DNA of 38,573 bases, from IMG/VR virus record IMGVR_UViG_2706794695_000013. One strand, given 5' to 3'. The DNA is from a virus (lineage: Duplodnaviria; Heunggongvirae; Uroviricota; Caudoviricetes). The notes beneath the pieces were generated by a model. It was not told where the DNA came from. It was given only the letters and a program-made list of their open reading frames with translations, and ran no database searches. Below, piece after piece: positions 2,983 to 38,573 of the stretch. Both the position numbers and the translations under genes were made by a program. The stretch's first letter is position 1, and every line of letters starts with the position of its first letter.

Positions 2983-3582
2983 TCAGAATTTATAACCGAC
3001 ACCCACGATGAAACCGTCAGTGCGCCAGTCGCCACTGCCGGAGCCTTCATAAGCAATATCAATGGCCACGGATTCGGTCGGGTTAAACTGCACGCCAGCT
3101 CCCCACGCCAGAGACGTGTTGCTGTGGCGACCGTCATCACTTCCGGTCAGCACATCGTGCGTTTTCCCCTTGTTGTCAGTTACGCGAAGATAATCCCCGG
3201 AGAAAGTCGACACACGGCTGTAAGCCACACCCGCCATCGCATACGCGCTGAACCATTCATTCACGCGCACAGACGGCCCCGCCATTACGCTGAACCAGCG
3301 GTTACGAACGGAATCTTCATGCCAGCGGGTATCGCTGTAACGGGTCAGCTGGCGATTCTTGTCTCCTGCATAGCTGAATGACGTCACCAGCCCCAGTGTG
3401 TCCGTAAACTCATAACGGTATTTCACGTTAATCCCGTTCAGATCATCACTGCCGGGGACGTTCGTCGAGGCATGAAGATACCCCGCGCTCAGCGTGGACT
3501 GATGTTCAGACGCCCATGCAGGCGCACCGGATACGGCCAGACAAATGGCTGCGGACAAAATTGCTGCACAAACTTTACGCAT
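2983..3582 (-). CDS. lom: Outer membrane protein Lom (Ail/Lom family), lysogenic-conversion gene
   Basis: 199 aa; MRKVCAAILSAAICLAVSGAPAWASEHQSTLSAGYLHA... closely matches lambda Lom, including the signal peptide. Confidence 0.9.
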   Translation of the reverse strand: MRKVCAAILSAAICLAVSGAPAWASEHQSTLSAGYLHASTNVPGSDDLNGINVKYRYEFTDTLGLVTSFSYAGDKNRQLTRYSDTRWHEDSVRNRWFSVMAGPSVRVNEWFSAYAMAGVAYSRVSTFSGDYLRVTDNKGKTHDVLTGSDDGRHSNTSLAWGAGVQFNPTESVAIDIAYEGSGSGDWRTDGFIVGVGYKF

Positions 3583-3603
3583 AATTACCTCTCGCTTTTC
3601 TGC

Positions 3604-3632
3604 AATAAAAAAGGCGTCATTCCTGACGCCCT
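3604..3632 (-). terminator. Rho-independent terminator between J and lom
   Basis: Stem ggcgtca / tgacgcc with loop ttcc, followed on the minus strand by TTTTTTATT. Confidence 0.5.
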
Positions 3633-3652
3633 TTATTGGGGTTATAAATATT

Positions 3653-6600
3653 TCAACGAATACTGATGCCGGAAGCGGCTTTTTTGGTCACAATCACCGT
3701 ACAGTCGGTGATATTGCCTGCCCCCTGATTGCCTTTCTGGAAAATCTTAAACTCCAGAGTGACGCTTCCCCTGCCACTCGGCATATCAATAACTGCACTG
3801 TAACTACCGGGAATGGCCCCTTTAGTTTCTCTGGATGCGATTAATACGCCGTTTTTGCGAACTTCAAAACCATAACCCGTGTATCGCGTGCCTCCTGGGT
3901 TATTTCCGCTCCCCGGATCGTCATACGCTATACCGTTAAAAATAATGGGCGGAATAATAATCTGGCGGTCAAAGTTATGATCATCGCTGATGGTGACTGT
4001 AACCGTACCGTTTGGTGTTTCCGTGTTACCCCACGTACCGACTTTTTTCGGGAAGGCTTTTGATACAGCTTTAACGAAATCCCCTCTGACCTGGGTCGCC
4101 TCCAGCATGCCCTTAATCGTACAGTTCTGGTTAATCGTGACATTGTTGAGCGTCCCTGAATTTGCATTCACATTACCGCTGATATCCGCATTTTTAGCGG
4201 TCAGCTTTCCGTCTGGTGTCAGGGAAAATGCCGGCGGATTTCCACCGCTGGTAATGGTGGGAGCCGTCAGGCGTTTCAGGAACACGTCATTCATGAATAT
4301 CTGGTTGCCCTGCGCCACAAACATCGGCGTTTCATTCCCGTTTGCCGGGTCAATAAACGCGATACGGTTAGCGGCAACCAGAAACTGGCTCAGTTTGCCT
4401 TCCTCCGTGTCCTCCATGCTGAGGCCAATACCCGCGACATAATGTTTGCCGTCTTTGGTCTGCTCAATTTTGACGCCCCACATGGCATTCCACTTATCGT
4501 TGGCGTCCTTCCACTCTTTCGAAAACTCCTCCAGTCTGCTGGCGTTATCCTCCGTCAGGTCGACTTTTTCCAGCAGCTCCTGGCCGAGATGGGATTCGGT
4601 TATCTGGCCTTTGAAAAAATCCAGGTAACCTTCCGCATCATCGCTCGCCCGACCGACAGCCTCCACGAATGCTGATTTGCCGACGGTGTTCACACTGCGG
4701 ATATAAAAGTAATAATCATGGCCCGGCTTAATATTGATACTGGCGGCTATCCAGTACAGCCCCGTGCCAAGGTAGCGGGCTGTGGTTTCAACCTGCCTGA
4801 TATCCGCAATCCGTTTTTCCGAGAACCAGAACTCAAACTGTACCGTCGGGTCATAAACCGCAAGATGCGGCGTGGCGGTTATCTGAAAATAGCCCGGCGT
4901 CAGCTCAATCCGCGACGGCGCTGCCGGTGCGGCAATCCGGAACGATACCGACGCCGGATCGCCCTGCTGCCCCCACGCATTTACTGCCCGGACTGTCAGC
5001 CTGTAGTTCCCCAGAGCCAGTTGTGTGAAGCGGTAAGTGGTTTCCGTCGTCCGGGCCGTGCTGACCAGCCGCTCACGGCCGTCATCCGCTGCCACGGTCA
5101 GGCGAAGCAGGAAGCTCACGCCCTTCACCACCTTCGGCGTGTCCCAGCGGGCCAGCACCTGGTATTCCCCGCTGTCTGCGGTGACTTCTGCGGTCAGGTG
5201 CTGCACCGCTGGCGGCGTGACACCATTTACCGTGCCGCTCTGGTCGCCGTCAAAGTGCGCCCCGTTATCCACGATGGCCTCTTTTTCCGGTACATGCTGC
5301 ACGGCAGTGATGGCATACGTGCCGTCGTCGTTCTCACGGATACTCACGCAGCGGAACAGGCGCTGGCGCAGCGTCGGCAGCTTCAGCCCCCATACGCTGT
5401 ATTCAGCAACGCCGTCAGGAACACGGCTCACTTTCACCTTCACGCCGTCGGTGACGGACTGAACCTCCACGCTGACCGGACTCCCCTGCCCGTCAACCAG
5501 GCTTATCAGCGTGGTGCCGGAAGATGGCAGCGTGATTTCACGGTCGAGCGTCAGCGTCCGGGTCTGGCTGTTTACCGCCAGCACGCGCCCGCCGGTGCGG
5601 ATACCGGCATAGTCATCATCGCAGATTTCAATGACATCGCCCGGTACATGGCGAAGCCCTTCGGCACCCACGCTGAAGTCCACGGTCTGCGTTTCCAGCA
5701 GTTCTGTTTTAATCAGCCACAGCCCGGCGCGGTGTGCCTGCCCCCGGCTGGTACAGCCAAAAGCATCCATCTTCGTGACGTTACGACCGTAACGGGCAAT
5801 GGCCTGCGTGTCCTCCACAAGCTCTGTCGCCGTCTCCCAGCCGTTATTCGGGTCAATCCAGTTCACCTCAACGGCATTATGGCGGTCTTTCAGGGCGCTG
5901 AAGCTGTAGCGGAACGGCGCACCATCATCCGGCATCACCACATTACTGCGGTTATAGGTCCACACCTTATCCGACGGTCGGTCCTGCACGAACGTCAGCG
6001 TCTGCCCGTTCCATACCGGCATACAGCGCATCGCCGAGCAGAAATCACTGAGCACATCCCACGCCTTGCGCTGTGTGGTCAGGTACGCATTACAGGTGAT
6101 GCGCGGCTCCGTGCCGCCAAAACCGTCCGGCACCGACTGATCGCAATGCTGGCCGATGACATACAGCGCCCATTTGTCCACATCCGCCGCACCAAGACGT
6201 TTCCCCATGCCGTAGCGCGGATGGGTCAGCATATCCCACAGACACCAGGCCATGTTGTTGCTGTATGCTGGCTTAAACGTTCCGTCCCAGATACCGCTGT
6301 ATTGCCGCGTCTGCGGGTTATAGCTCGACGGCACCTGCAGAATGCGCCCGCGCAGATGATAATTACGGCTCACCTGCTGGCTGCCGAACTGCTCCGAATC
6401 CACCTGCACGCCGACCAGTGCCGTGTTCGGGTAGCACTGTTTCACATCGATGATTTCGGTGTATGACGACCAGAGCGTTTTGTTCTGCAGCTGGTCTGTG
6501 GTGCTGTCCGGCGTCATCCTGCGCATCCGTATATTGAACGGGCGCGGCGGCAGGTTACCCACCACCACCGAGGCCAGATACTGCGAGGTGGTTTTGCCCT

Positions 6601-35210: not shown

Positions 35211-36035
35211 ATGTCTCAGAACTTAGACGCAACCGCAATTAATCAAATCCATGCCCTTATTTCTGCTCAGGGTGTTAATGAAATTATCAGTAAGATTGGT
35301 GCCGATGCTGTGGCATTGCCTGAGAATTTCCGCATTCATGATCTGGAAAAATTAAATTTAAATCGTTTCCGTTTCCGTGGTGCGCTTTCCACTGCCAGCA
35401 TCGATGACTTTACTCGTTATTCTAAAGATCTTGCAGATGAAGGCACCCGCTGCTTTATCGATGCTGATAATATGCGTGCCGTCAGTGTTCTTAACCTGGG
35501 TACTATTGATGAACCAGGTCACGCAGATAACACCGCCACTCTCAAACTGAAAAAGACAGCTCCGTTCTCTGCTCTGTTGTCTGTTAATGGCGAGCGTAAC
35601 TCCCAGAAGTCACTGGCAGAATGGATTGAAGACTGGGCCGACTACCTTGTGGGCTTTGATGCTAATGGTGACGCCATTCAGGCAACCAAAGCGGCTGCGG
35701 CGATCCGTAAAATCACAATTGAAGCGAACCAGACCGCTGATTTTGAAGATAATGACTTCAGCGGCAAACGCTCCCTGATGGAGTCTGTCGAAGCGAAGAC
35801 CAAAGACATTATGCCAGTGGCATTTGAATTTAAATGCGTTCCGTTTGAAGGTCTGAAAGAACGTCCGTTTAAATTACGCCTCAGCATTATCACTGGCGAT
35901 CGTCCTGTACTGGTTCTGCGCATTATTCAGCTGGAAGCGGTACAGGAAGAAATGGCTAACGAATTTCGTGATCTGCTTGTTGAGAAATTCAAAGACAGCA
36001 AAGTAGAAACCTTTATTGGTACTTTCACCGCCTGA
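35211..36035 (+). CDS. Hypothetical protein, 274 aa (YfdQ-like / DUF2303 by recollection)
   Basis: Complete [24 protein letters not shown]...; co-oriented and adjacent to the 120-aa gene. Confidence 0.55.
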
Positions 36036-36047
36036 TTTCATTACTGC

Positions 36048-36069
36048 AAATGCCCCTGCGGGGGCATTT
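36048..36069 (+). terminator. Strong hairpin after the 274-aa gene (terminator-like)
   Basis: aaatgcccc tgcg ggggcattt, perfect 9-bp stem. Confidence 0.4.
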
Positions 36070-36223
36070 ACGGAAGCGATAATTTTAACTATTGCCGCCC
36101 CTATAAAGAACCATTAAACAATAACGTGACGTAGCTATTGATAGTAAATGAAGCACTTGCAAAATAATTGCATTGCGTATATATACACACATGTGTTGTA
36201 TTACAGCGATAATGGTAAAGCAA

Positions 36224-37006
36224 ATGATTAACTCTGAAGCAATTGAGCAACTAATGTGGCTATGGTCCTTATTTGACATTAAATTCTTATCTATTCTTGC
36301 CGCTGCCTTCACTATATATTTTGGCGTGCAAAAAATATCAAAAAAGGTGACAGTGTCGTATTCAGCAAATGCAAGTAGAATATATGACATGCATATATCA
36401 ACCATAATCCTGAATAATAAAAGAGATAATGCAATTGCTATATCTTCAATCAATATGGAGGTTGAAGGTAAAGGGATACTACAAGTTATTAAATTTGACT
36501 CCCCTCTTCTTTTAAAGAACTATGATTCTTTAAAAGTTGAACCACCAAAATTTAGCAGCCTTTACAATAATGATGGCGTAGTTAAGTTAGATATTTCTGA
36601 TAAGTTTCATTTTTATATAATCACGACATCTGGAGATGAAATTAAATGTATTTCTGAAAATAAATATGTAGCACCAAACATGGAAAACAAAATAGCTACA
36701 GACATAAGAAAATTTAATGGCATTGTCTTAACAAACAGAATGTCTTATATTTTTTTCTATGCAAATGACAACGGAGAGAAATACTGCATAATAGATGTTT
36801 CATTGTTCATAAATGGTGACAACCCATTTCATTTTAATTTTTTAAAAGAAGATGAATTAAGAGATTTTTCTAGCATCCTTATTAGTTACGGATATCACCA
36901 ACAGTTTAAAAGTTATGCATTGTTTAAAATAGACAACCATCTTGCTCCTTCTTTGGTTTTAAATAAATCAATGATAGAAAATAATATTATTGAAATGAAT
37001 AAGTAA
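36224..37006 (+). CDS. Membrane-anchored protein of unknown function, AT-rich cassette (start uncertain, 36173-36224)
   Basis: N-terminal hydrophobic helix LMWLWSLFDIKFLSILAAAFTIYFGV then a soluble domain rich in N/K/I/F; GC far below the neighbours; possible own promoter TTGCAA-17-TATACA near 36157-36185. Confidence 0.6.
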   Translation: MINSEAIEQLMWLWSLFDIKFLSILAAAFTIYFGVQKISKKVTVSYSANASRIYDMHISTIILNNKRDNAIAISSINMEVEGKGILQVIKFDSPLLLKNYDSLKVEPPKFSSLYNNDGVVKLDISDKFHFYIITTSGDEIKCISENKYVAPNMENKIATDIRKFNGIVLTNRMSYIFFYANDNGEKYCIIDVSLFINGDNPFHFNFLKEDELRDFSSILISYGYHQQFKSYALFKIDNHLAPSLVLNKSMIENNIIEMNK

Positions 37007-37042
37007 CTCACCGGGTGCAGCCGGTTATGATGGAGAAATGAT

Positions 37043-37324
37043 ATGAATACCTTGTTTTTACTGATGGCTGAATTCAATACCCCAAACATTGAACTCTCAG
37101 CAGTTAGTCAAAAATACTTTGGTATGAGTCCAGCCACAGCAGAAGCAAAAGCAAACGCTTGTAAGTTGCCTGTACCTACATATCGCATCGGTACATCACA
37201 AAAAGCAAAACGTTGCATCAATATTCAGGATCTTGCGGAATACATAGACAAAAGACGAGAAGAAGGACGTATCGAGTGGGAACAGGTCAGAACAGGCAAA
37301 CAGAAGGGCAAAGAACATCACTAA
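37043..37324 (+). CDS. PrtN-like small DNA-binding protein (regulator or excisionase-like)
   Basis: 93 aa; MNTLFLLMAEFNTPNIELSAVSQKYFGMSPATAEAKANACKLPVPTYRIG... resembles the PrtN / phage regulatory family. Confidence 0.55.
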   Translation: MNTLFLLMAEFNTPNIELSAVSQKYFGMSPATAEAKANACKLPVPTYRIGTSQKAKRCINIQDLAEYIDKRREEGRIEWEQVRTGKQKGKEHH

Positions 37325-37326
37325 AG

Positions 37327-37353
37327 AAAAAACCCGCCTAAAGGCGGGTTTTC
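37327..37353. terminator. Bidirectional rho-independent terminator between convergent genes
   Basis: aaaaaa cccgcc taaa ggcggg tttt. Confidence 0.7.
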
Positions 37354-37371
37354 AAAAAGCACCAGCTATGA

Positions 37372-37545
37372 TCATGCTGCTTTGCGACGACGAAGCTTAC
37401 CCTGCTGCTCTTTACCAGAGACAGTAGCGTGAGTGAACGCATTAGGAGCAGCCTTCATCAGAACTTCAACAGCAGCACCCATACCTGCGAATGCTTTCAT
37501 TGTGTCGAACTTAACCTGTGGCTTGGTTGCTTTTTGATCTTCCAT
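37372..37545 (-). CDS. Small basic protein, 57 aa (below the ORF-track length cutoff)
   Basis: My manual translation: MEDQKATKPQVKFDTMKAFAGMGAAVEVLMKAAPNAFTHATVSGKEQQGKLRRRKAA; GGAG 6 nt upstream; ends at the bidirectional terminator. Confidence 0.4.
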   Translation of the reverse strand: MEDQKATKPQVKFDTMKAFAGMGAAVEVLMKAAPNAFTHATVSGKEQQGKLRRRKAA

Positions 37546-37584
37546 AGAAAACTCCAGAAGCTATACCGAAACAATTCCTGTTGT

Positions 37585-38004
37585 TTACTCATCATCAATA
37601 GATGATACGCAATATTTATTTTTAAATTTAAGGTTCTTTGGCGTAACTTCATCAGATATATCAAAACCGTCCAGAATTCTATTGAATGTAGCTTCTGGCA
37701 TATCATCATGAACGGAAATCTCACCCGATCGCTGCTTTCTAACCATGTTATCCACTCGCCAAATTATAGCTTCAGCGTAAACAACATAACTTGGATGCTT
37801 GATAAAGCGATGATCACCAGAATTCAAGACGCAAGACGGATCGTGGGGGACACCATCCTTGATACTAGAAATATTAACAACTAAAACACAATAACAATCG
37901 TTAACGGGGTAATAAACAGGATCATTACAAATCACATGAAGATGATTGCATGGCCCAGTTGGGGCAAGCACAGTTCCTTTCCTGTATGGCTGATAATCCG
38001 TCAT
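37585..38004 (-). CDS. Hypothetical protein, 139 aa, translationally coupled to the Panacea-like gene (candidate toxin)
   Basis: ATGA overlap with the upstream stop at 38001-38004; Cys/His-containing MTDYQPYRKGTVLAPTGPCNHLHVICNDP...; no recognisable family. Confidence 0.55.
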   Translation of the reverse strand: MTDYQPYRKGTVLAPTGPCNHLHVICNDPVYYPVNDCYCVLVVNISSIKDGVPHDPSCVLNSGDHRFIKHPSYVVYAEAIIWRVDNMVRKQRSGEISVHDDMPEATFNRILDGFDISDEVTPKNLKFKNKYCVSSIDDE

Positions 38005-38573
38005 GATAATTGCAAAGAAAATTCCTTAAGTTTCTGAGATTCTTCCATTTTGCCAATTATACGATTAGCCTCATCCTCGCTTTTACCCTCACTGATCAGC
38101 ATTTCTTTCAGGTCTATAGGCTTACGAGAATTGCCAGGATTGTGCCACTCTGGACAAACGCTTTCTAAATGCGTCATGTTTGCGAGATCAAATCGGTTCA
38201 TATGCCCATACAGAGAATAGATTTCATCTAAAATCCGGATATCTGCACGGCTCAACTCATCAAAGACCTCGTCTGCATCCATTTCCCTCGGATCTGAACG
38301 CAACAACACATCATGCCCGTTCGTCTCTATCAGGTTGTACCAGTAGTCACCAATACCTTCAGCCTTACCACGAATCAAGTTCAGCGTATTCGACATGACT
38401 GGACCAAATTTCATAGAGTAAAGGCTATCTTCGCCGATCATCCTGCCATGCTTCAAAATCGACTTGCGGTTAGACAGATAGAGCAGCTTCATCAATTTCA
38501 GATATGCCATGCGCCCACCTCGCTTAAGAAGTAGGTATGCAGCCATTTGAGCTACTTTTTCTTCGCAAAACAT
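38001..38573 (-). CDS. Panacea-domain (DUF4065, SocA/GepA-like) protein, candidate antitoxin; N-terminus may extend beyond the window
   Basis: VAQMAAYLLLKRGGRMAYLKLMKLLYLSNRK...SMKFGPVMSNTLNLI fits the Panacea pattern (T-x-LKL-x-KLLY ... F-x-A-x2-GPV); ORF begins at the last base of the window. Confidence 0.6.
   Translation of the reverse strand: MFCEEKVAQMAAYLLLKRGGRMAYLKLMKLLYLSNRKSILKHGRMIGEDSLYSMKFGPVMSNTLNLIRGKAEGIGDYWYNLIETNGHDVLLRSDPREMDADEVFDELSRADIRILDEIYSLYGHMNRFDLANMTHLESVCPEWHNPGNSRKPIDLKEMLISEGKSEDEANRIIGKMEESQKLKEFSLQLS

Follow-up and report, generated by a model that had tools for sequence, protein, structure and literature searches.

Three genes follow one another on the minus strand at the end of a 38,573-nucleotide (nt) stretch of viral DNA (Caudoviricetes; IMG/VR record IMGVR_UViG_2706794695_000013; hereafter the window, meaning the whole stretch), and they raise the question of whether a toxin-antitoxin operon is encoded there and, if so, whether its toxin is of a new kind. 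An earlier note, made from the letters of the window, had placed them at 38001-38573, 37585-38004 and 37372-37545, where they are indeed found, and had read them as an operon of a Panacea-like antitoxin of 190 amino acids (aa), a coupled 139-aa partner that might be an undescribed toxin, and a 57-aa basic protein. In this study, the window, which is a lambdoid prophage sequence of Escherichia coli, was analysed for domain identity, fold, synteny, family membership and distribution. We consider it likely that the first two genes, here called panA and panT, constitute a type II PanA-PanT toxin-antitoxin module with a MazF-fold toxin, carried as prophage cargo.

The 190-aa protein is encoded by panA (38001-38573, minus strand). 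A profile search matched it to PF13274 (SocA_Panacea) with an E-value of 1.8e-18 and 67.9 bits against a cut-off of 25.7 (the Pfam gathering score), and the Panacea-like signature seen earlier is thereby borne out. The match covers residues 27-137 and profile positions 1-109 of 113. The protein also matches phrog_1281 and carries the RefSeq name 'Panacea domain-containing protein' (WP_000458583.1). On these sequence matches we assign it to the Panacea (DUF4065) antitoxins. Its identification as a SocA equivalog was rejected, the score against NCBIfam NF047745 being 13.5 bits at a cut-off of 190. Behind the Panacea core, residues 138-190 form a charged helical tail of about 50 residues that orthologues retain in length and pattern. 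Ernits et al. (2023; PMC10440598) proposed that the Panacea domain serves as a sensor and that appended elements may bring about neutralisation. By analogy, the conserved tail of PanA fits the idea of an appended neutralising element. PanA would bind PanT directly and hold it inactive; the helical tail may mediate this neutralisation, and the Panacea core is possibly the sensor.

The pairing of the two genes is conserved well beyond E. coli. A scan of one genome per species gave 32 loci with a PanT homologue, 30 of them with enough upstream sequence to judge, and in all 30 a PanA homologue lies directly upstream and in the same direction. These loci span Enterobacterales, Vibrionaceae, Methylococcales, Alphaproteobacteria and Betaproteobacteria. 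Their PanA proteins align with that of the window from residue 1 through the C-terminus, and the similarities of PanA and PanT fall together from locus to locus. The genes overlap by 4 bases in 15 of the 30 pairs and by 1 base in two more. In the window, the stop codon of panA and the start codon of panT share the ATGA at 38001-38004, an overlap already described in the note and indicating, from the sequence itself, translational coupling. The pair is present in 208 of 5426 complete E. coli genomes, and a PanT homologue was found in nine phage records. One of these is Pseudomonas phage Sirocco, a member of the Peduoviridae (P2-like), whose left genome end holds the pair just before the portal gene, a position that we take to be a reported defence hotspot of P2-like phages. 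The PanT homologue of Sirocco (132 aa; locus L046, 1486-1884, plus strand) is unannotated; a 44-aa open reading frame (ORF) on the opposite strand is annotated there instead.

Both gene starts needed attention, since panA begins with the final base of the window and the toxin gene is annotated differently in RefSeq. The region 36000-38573 was compared with complete E. coli chromosomes and is 100% identical to several of them. The chromosome of E. coli A14 (locus L001, in which coordinates equal the window coordinate minus 23999) was used for the view past the window edge, an extension that the note had advised for settling the start of the 190-aa protein. No in-frame ATG, GTG or TTG occurs between the ATG at 38573 and the in-frame stop codon upstream, a GAGG lies 8 nt upstream of the start, and the orthologues in the 30 loci share the N-terminus MF(S/C)E.K.AQMA. 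We therefore take the ATG at 38573 to be the true start and panA to be complete; its continuation past the window edge was ruled out by the lack of an in-frame start before the upstream stop. For the toxin gene (37585-38004, minus strand), RefSeq/PGAP uses an internal GTG (window region 37972-38004, minus strand), which yields a protein of 128 aa (WP_014640052.1). Across 54 aligned homologues the N-terminal sequence MTxYxPYRKGT is retained, with M1, P6, K9, G10 and T11 kept. Because these first 11 residues are conserved, we place the start at the ATG that overlaps the panA stop, which corrects the toxin from 128 to 139 aa.

PanT belongs to a large family. It comprises 62 clusters at 90% identity, mostly from Enterobacterales, and 2703 representative proteins, counted as one per 50%-identity cluster, match the family profile at E-values up to 0.001. 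PanT falls into phrog_19071, for which PHROGs assigns no function, and scans of the protein with Pfam, NCBIfam and PADLOC gave noise matches only (ICMT, E 0.05; DapC, E 0.002). Its relationship became apparent from structure prediction, which the note had proposed for the 139-aa and the 57-aa proteins. An AlphaFold2 model built with 54 sequences (pLDDT 90.1, pTM 0.84) shows a beta-barrel followed by three C-terminal helices. The top 50 matches that Foldseek found for this model in the Protein Data Bank (PDB) are all MazF, and in a fold search of a viral structure library PemK-like and endoribonuclease proteins rank first. Judged from the model, PanT thus adopts a MazF/PemK/Kid-like fold and falls within the MazF/Kid/CcdB fold. 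For the 57-aa protein structure prediction was uninformative: AlphaFold gave a single low-confidence helix at residues 15-32 and a pLDDT of 61.

The putative active site seems to be a variant of its own. Conservation was counted over 113 diverse family members, among which H21 is invariant. Nearly invariant are D55 (111/113), C58 (110/113), H65 (112/113), Y76 (111/113) and G113 (110/113), closely followed by G63, F67 and S72 (107/113 each) and S117 (106/113). Position 47 is Ser or Thr in 111 and position 46 in 97 of the 113 sequences; a conserved Arg is absent from them. In E. coli MazF, the catalytic residues are Arg R29 and Thr T52. A local hhalign alignment of PanT with E. coli MazF, of low confidence and not significant, puts H21-L22 opposite H28-R29 and S46-S47 opposite T52-T53. 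According to the model, the topology of PanT fits that of MazF and the putative active site is distinct. Candidate active-site residues, suggested by conservation, are the invariant His21 together with the nearly invariant His65, Asp55 and Ser/Thr46-47, and the probable chemistry would be metal-independent endoribonucleolytic cleavage of RNA.

Is PanT then an undescribed toxin, as the note had supposed? This part of its reading does not hold. Kurata et al. (2022; PNAS, PMC8832971) catalogued the toxins associated with Panacea proteins, and their cluster T6 was annotated by HHpred as 'EndoA/PemK/MazF-family RNases'. The T6 rows of their Dataset S1 include Pantoea septica LMG 5345, with a PanA-PanT distance of -4, and Yersiniaceae bacterium 2016Iso4, with a distance of -1. 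Both strains appear in our scan. The PanT homologue of P. septica LMG 5345 (locus L010) is 56% identical to PanT of the window (E 1e-48) and overlaps the upstream panA by 4 bases; that of strain 2016-Iso4 (locus L009) is 55% identical (E 3e-49) and overlaps by 1 base. The overlaps equal the tabulated values. Since its homologues occur in strains listed in T6 and with the same overlaps, we assign PanT of the window to T6. The pair would accordingly be a further member of a known Panacea/MazF-like class, not a new toxin domain. The pairing was already catalogued and one member validated in 2022, so that no new kind of system is described here. The validated member is the T6 representative of Pseudomonas moraviensis (PanA WP_083354365.1, PanT WP_083201923.1), whose toxic PanT is neutralised by PanA, is recovered together with it on purification and inhibits protein synthesis specifically (Kurata et al., 2022). 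Phage Sirocco offers a further connection to Pseudomonas: its PanT homologue is 48% identical to that of the window (E 3e-29) and overlaps the preceding panA by 1 base, and its PanA begins with MIFSEQKVAQ, exactly as Kurata et al. (2022) give it for the N-terminus of PanA from P. moraviensis. The 139-aa protein is thus very probably a toxin, as predicted from its family membership. By analogy with the T6 representative, it would most likely halt growth by inhibiting translation. The E. coli prophage pair is not found in the part of Dataset S1 considered here, in which the E. coli entries belong only to T1 and T3 (Kurata et al., 2022), and a literature search with the three RefSeq accessions returned no match.

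Several observations weigh against a MazF-like toxin module. Searches of PDB sequences with the family profile (alignments A1 and A2) gave nothing below an E-value of 0.3. PF02452 (PemK_toxin) is absent from PanT of the window and was matched by one of the 113 diverse family members, at E 0.11. The hhalign comparison of the PanT family profile with E. coli MazF, the sequence of which agreed with PDB entries, was not significant (probability 0.2), and the Foldseek matches themselves are weak, with a best E-value of 3.8e-3 and TM-scores of 0.5-0.6. The homology between P. moraviensis PanT and PanT of the window is drawn from shared T6 membership and from the homologue in a Pseudomonas phage. Furthermore, the conserved His, Asp and Cys residues differ from the catalytic Arg/Thr set of MazF, and the chemistry could differ as well. 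A CcdB-like PanT also comes into consideration, in which the same fold would poison DNA gyrase or bind another protein and RNA would not be cleaved; we regard this as quite improbable.

Other points concern toxicity and a role in defence. No PADLOC-DB 2.0 model matches any of the three proteins at E-values up to 0.1, and the papers searched contained no phage-defence data for the PanT family. Several predicted PanT proteins were non-toxic in the hands of Kurata et al. (2022), whose list of 'not toxic' pairs includes an E. coli prophage pair of cluster T1. The pair of the window might accordingly be a sensor-effector defence system or a non-toxic pair, with a 139-aa protein that is harmless unless a phage trigger acts on PanA, or that is not toxic in E. 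coli. The sensory role favoured for the Panacea domain (Ernits et al., 2023) would suit such an arrangement, as would the location of the pair in a swappable cargo slot of temperate phages and before the portal gene at the Sirocco genome end. However, the tested T6 member is toxic alone and is neutralised by its PanA (Kurata et al., 2022), the strict order of antitoxin before toxin, with the stop codon of the one overlapping the start codon of the other, is typical of type II toxin-antitoxin operons, and the lack of any PADLOC match for PanA and PanT speaks against a sensor-effector defence system too. We therefore consider this alternative unlikely and retain the type II module with a MazF-fold toxin as the preferred reading.

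Does the third gene belong to this module? The 57-aa gene (37372-37545, minus strand) lies on the same strand as panT, separated from it by a 39-nt spacer (37546-37584) with a GGAG Shine-Dalgarno sequence at 37552-37555. It belongs to phrog_2741 (E 8e-36) and is a conserved prophage gene. Its family consists of 48 clusters, keeps its length down to 67% identity, has the conserved core FDT.AFAGMGAAVEVLMKAAP and is confined to Enterobacteriaceae and close relatives (Hafnia). As both the 139-aa and the 57-aa ORF have multi-cluster homologue families, we regard them, and with them panA, as real genes. All three genes are followed by one bidirectional intrinsic terminator at 37328-37353 (L001 13329-13354), where the note had ended the unit. 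The terminator has an 11-pair stem (6 G-C), a loop of 4 and a T run. It lies between the 57-aa gene and a converging gene of the PrtN family (37043-37324, plus strand; PF11112; phrog_1300, an 'excisionase' family) and is common to both units.

The only promoter-like site on the minus strand near the unit (TTGACC-17-TAAACT) is about 130 nt upstream of the panA start, outside the window, and the search for an operator upstream of panA revealed no inverted repeats. In the spacer behind panT, neither promoter-like nor terminator-like sites were detected. Because no promoter separates the 139-aa and 57-aa genes, one transcript spanning panA, panT and the 57-aa gene is the simplest reading, and the 57-aa gene is probably co-transcribed. 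The coupled panA and panT would probably be transcribed from a promoter shortly beyond the window edge, within the approximately 250 nt that separate panA from the prophage end. In this sense the three-gene operon of the note probably stands as a single transcript.

Its reading as one functional unit does not. In a true three-component system the 57-aa basic protein would be a partner of PanAT, for instance a regulator, chaperone or second toxin. The shared strand, the 39-nt spacing, the gene's own Shine-Dalgarno sequence, the single terminator and the lack of promoter-like and terminator-like sites in the spacer are all compatible with this, and in 205 of the 208 E. coli copies panA-panT is followed by the 57-aa gene. 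Distribution argues otherwise. A 57-aa homologue stands next to panAT in none of the 30 loci outside E. coli. Conversely, the 57-aa gene is found in 562 of the 5426 complete E. coli genomes, against 208 with panAT, and an unrelated 177-aa gene is present in 356 genomes, immediately followed by the 57-aa gene in the three records that were inspected. The panAT allele and this alternative cease to be homologous at about 37555-37558, a little upstream of the GGAG of the 57-aa gene; matches to window 37325-37584 stop at query position 231-234 in O157:H7 and other strains. Enterobacter and Hafnia prophages carry the 57-aa gene behind a 179-aa homologue of the 177-aa protein, at another place in the phage genome. 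Thus, absent beside PanAT elsewhere and more often behind another gene in E. coli, the 57-aa gene appears separable from the module, and a three-component system is highly improbable. We interpret the gene as a co-transcribed neighbour of the conserved PanAT module, resident in the slot and read through from panAT. Its conserved partner, if any, would be the 177-179-aa protein, which panAT appears to have replaced in the window.

The 179-aa and 57-aa pair of Hafnia and Enterobacter (loci L039-L045, approximately 3283-4174) is situated between the Q antiterminator and holin/lysis genes, and its recurrence at this other place is suggestive of a mobile cassette of two genes. The gene before it in Hafnia encodes a RelA_SpoT-domain protein with a match to the PADLOC candidate system PDC-S33 (E 1e-112). 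The 177-aa protein of the O157:H7 allele (WP_000956557.1; phrog_4350; locus L002, 3918-4451, minus strand) occupies the slot of window 37585-38573 and has no match in Pfam, PADLOC or PDB sequences. It was ruled out as a diverged PanA (BLASTP E 0.76, and none of these three resources gave a match), and its reading as a GNAT acetyltransferase was a mere impression that no tool supported.

The setting of the pair points to prophage cargo. The prophage boundary is marked by a 5' fragment of dusA, which in the identical E. coli A14 chromosome (L001 14828-14932) is situated about 250 nt upstream of the panA start, in line with the peripheral location given in the note. Its description of the operon as moderately AT-rich likewise agrees with the G+C contents of 43% for panA and 39% for panT, against 51% for the whole window. 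The integrase gene is not at the end with the dusA fragment; on the circular map of the phage it lies on the other side of attP from the cargo slot. Phage Lys8385Vzw has the order integrase, attP, PanA, PanT, 57-aa gene, terminator and, on the opposite strand, a PrtN-like gene. PanT and the 57-aa gene occur with 100% identity in phage SKA5, and in phage mEp460 the slot is occupied by the 177-aa allele. In enterotoxigenic E. coli (ETEC) H10407, a 344-aa CoiA-like nuclease gene (PF06054, E 7e-10; locus L004, 2347-3381, minus strand) lies between the 57-aa and PrtN genes, and this arrangement is a third variant of the slot. Since mEp460, O157:H7 and ETEC H10407 hold other contents there, we interpret the region between attP in dusA and the excisionase gene as a slot for variable cargo. 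The complete arrangement of window 36000-38573 occurs in only 52 of the 5426 E. coli genomes.

Beyond the PrtN gene, window positions 36173-37006 (plus strand; RefSeq start 36225, 260 aa) hold a gene with a G+C content of 29%, compared with 51% for the window. Its product has a hydrophobic N-terminal segment and matches phrog_14996; Pfam and PADLOC searches gave no match. The gene sits where related prophages have a 3'-5' exonuclease gene, and it may be another cargo or defence gene.

Judged from the cargo setting, the pair would most plausibly serve to defend against other phages or to stabilise the prophage. It is tempting to go further. CapRel(SJ46) is a fused toxSAS-antitoxin phage defence system whose antitoxin part senses a phage protein (Zhang et al., 2022; PMC9712102), and by analogy it may serve as a model for how PanA triggers PanT. 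Potentially, PanA might, like the Panacea-like part of CapRel, sense an incoming phage protein and then set PanT free, leading to abortive infection. PanT would then be a MazF-fold RNase in which a His21/His65 acid-base pair, supported by Asp55 and Cys58, takes the place of the usual Arg/Thr active site; the attP-excisionase slot would represent a defence hotspot, so far unrecognised, in lambdoid phages that integrate at dusA, and the 177-aa and 57-aa allele a further uncharacterised system. As a whole, this scheme is speculative and more doubtful than probable.

In summary, we propose a function for two genes that occur together in about 4% of complete E. coli genomes and of which RefSeq labels one only as 'hypothetical protein', and we recognise a cargo slot, with two or more alternative gene sets, between the excisionase gene and the dusA attachment site of these prophages. 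Further interest lies in the unusual conserved His, Asp and Cys residues on a MazF fold, in the possible role in defence and in the 177-aa and 57-aa cassette.

Among known systems, SocAB of Caulobacter, a type VI toxin-antitoxin system with SocA as the founding Panacea protein, shares with the window pair the SocA_Panacea domain of the antitoxin. SocA is a ClpXP adaptor that leads to degradation of SocB, and the SocB toxin binds the DnaN sliding clamp. PanT differs in being unrelated to SocB in fold class. With MazEF and PemIK (Kid-Kis), the window pair has in common an SH3-like barrel with a C-terminal helix, a two-gene operon with the antitoxin first and, as predicted for PanT, translation as the likely target through RNA cleavage. 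PanT differs from these toxins by lacking detectable PF02452 similarity, by two extra C-terminal helices and by conserved His21, Asp55, Cys58 and His65 instead of Arg29 and Thr52, and its antitoxin is a Panacea protein and not a MazE/PemI of the AbrB or RHH type. The loop between beta1 and beta2, delimited by the strand boundaries of the model, is presumably also very short compared with that of the MazF structure. CapRel(SJ46) is likewise prophage-encoded and has a Panacea-related antitoxin part; however, it is a single polypeptide whose toxin pyrophosphorylates tRNA, whereas the window encodes two proteins and a MazF-fold toxin (Zhang et al., 2022). The T6 PanAT systems (Kurata et al., 2022) agree with the window pair in a standalone Panacea antitoxin without an N-terminal domain, in the antitoxin-then-toxin order with a 1- or 4-base overlap, and in a toxin of about 130-140 aa with a MazF-like fold, and the toxins of their Enterobacterales members P. 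septica LMG 5345 and strain 2016-Iso4 are 55-56% identical to PanT of the window. The window pair is set apart from them by its place in a cargo slot of a lambdoid prophage at dusA and by the extra resident 57-aa gene downstream.

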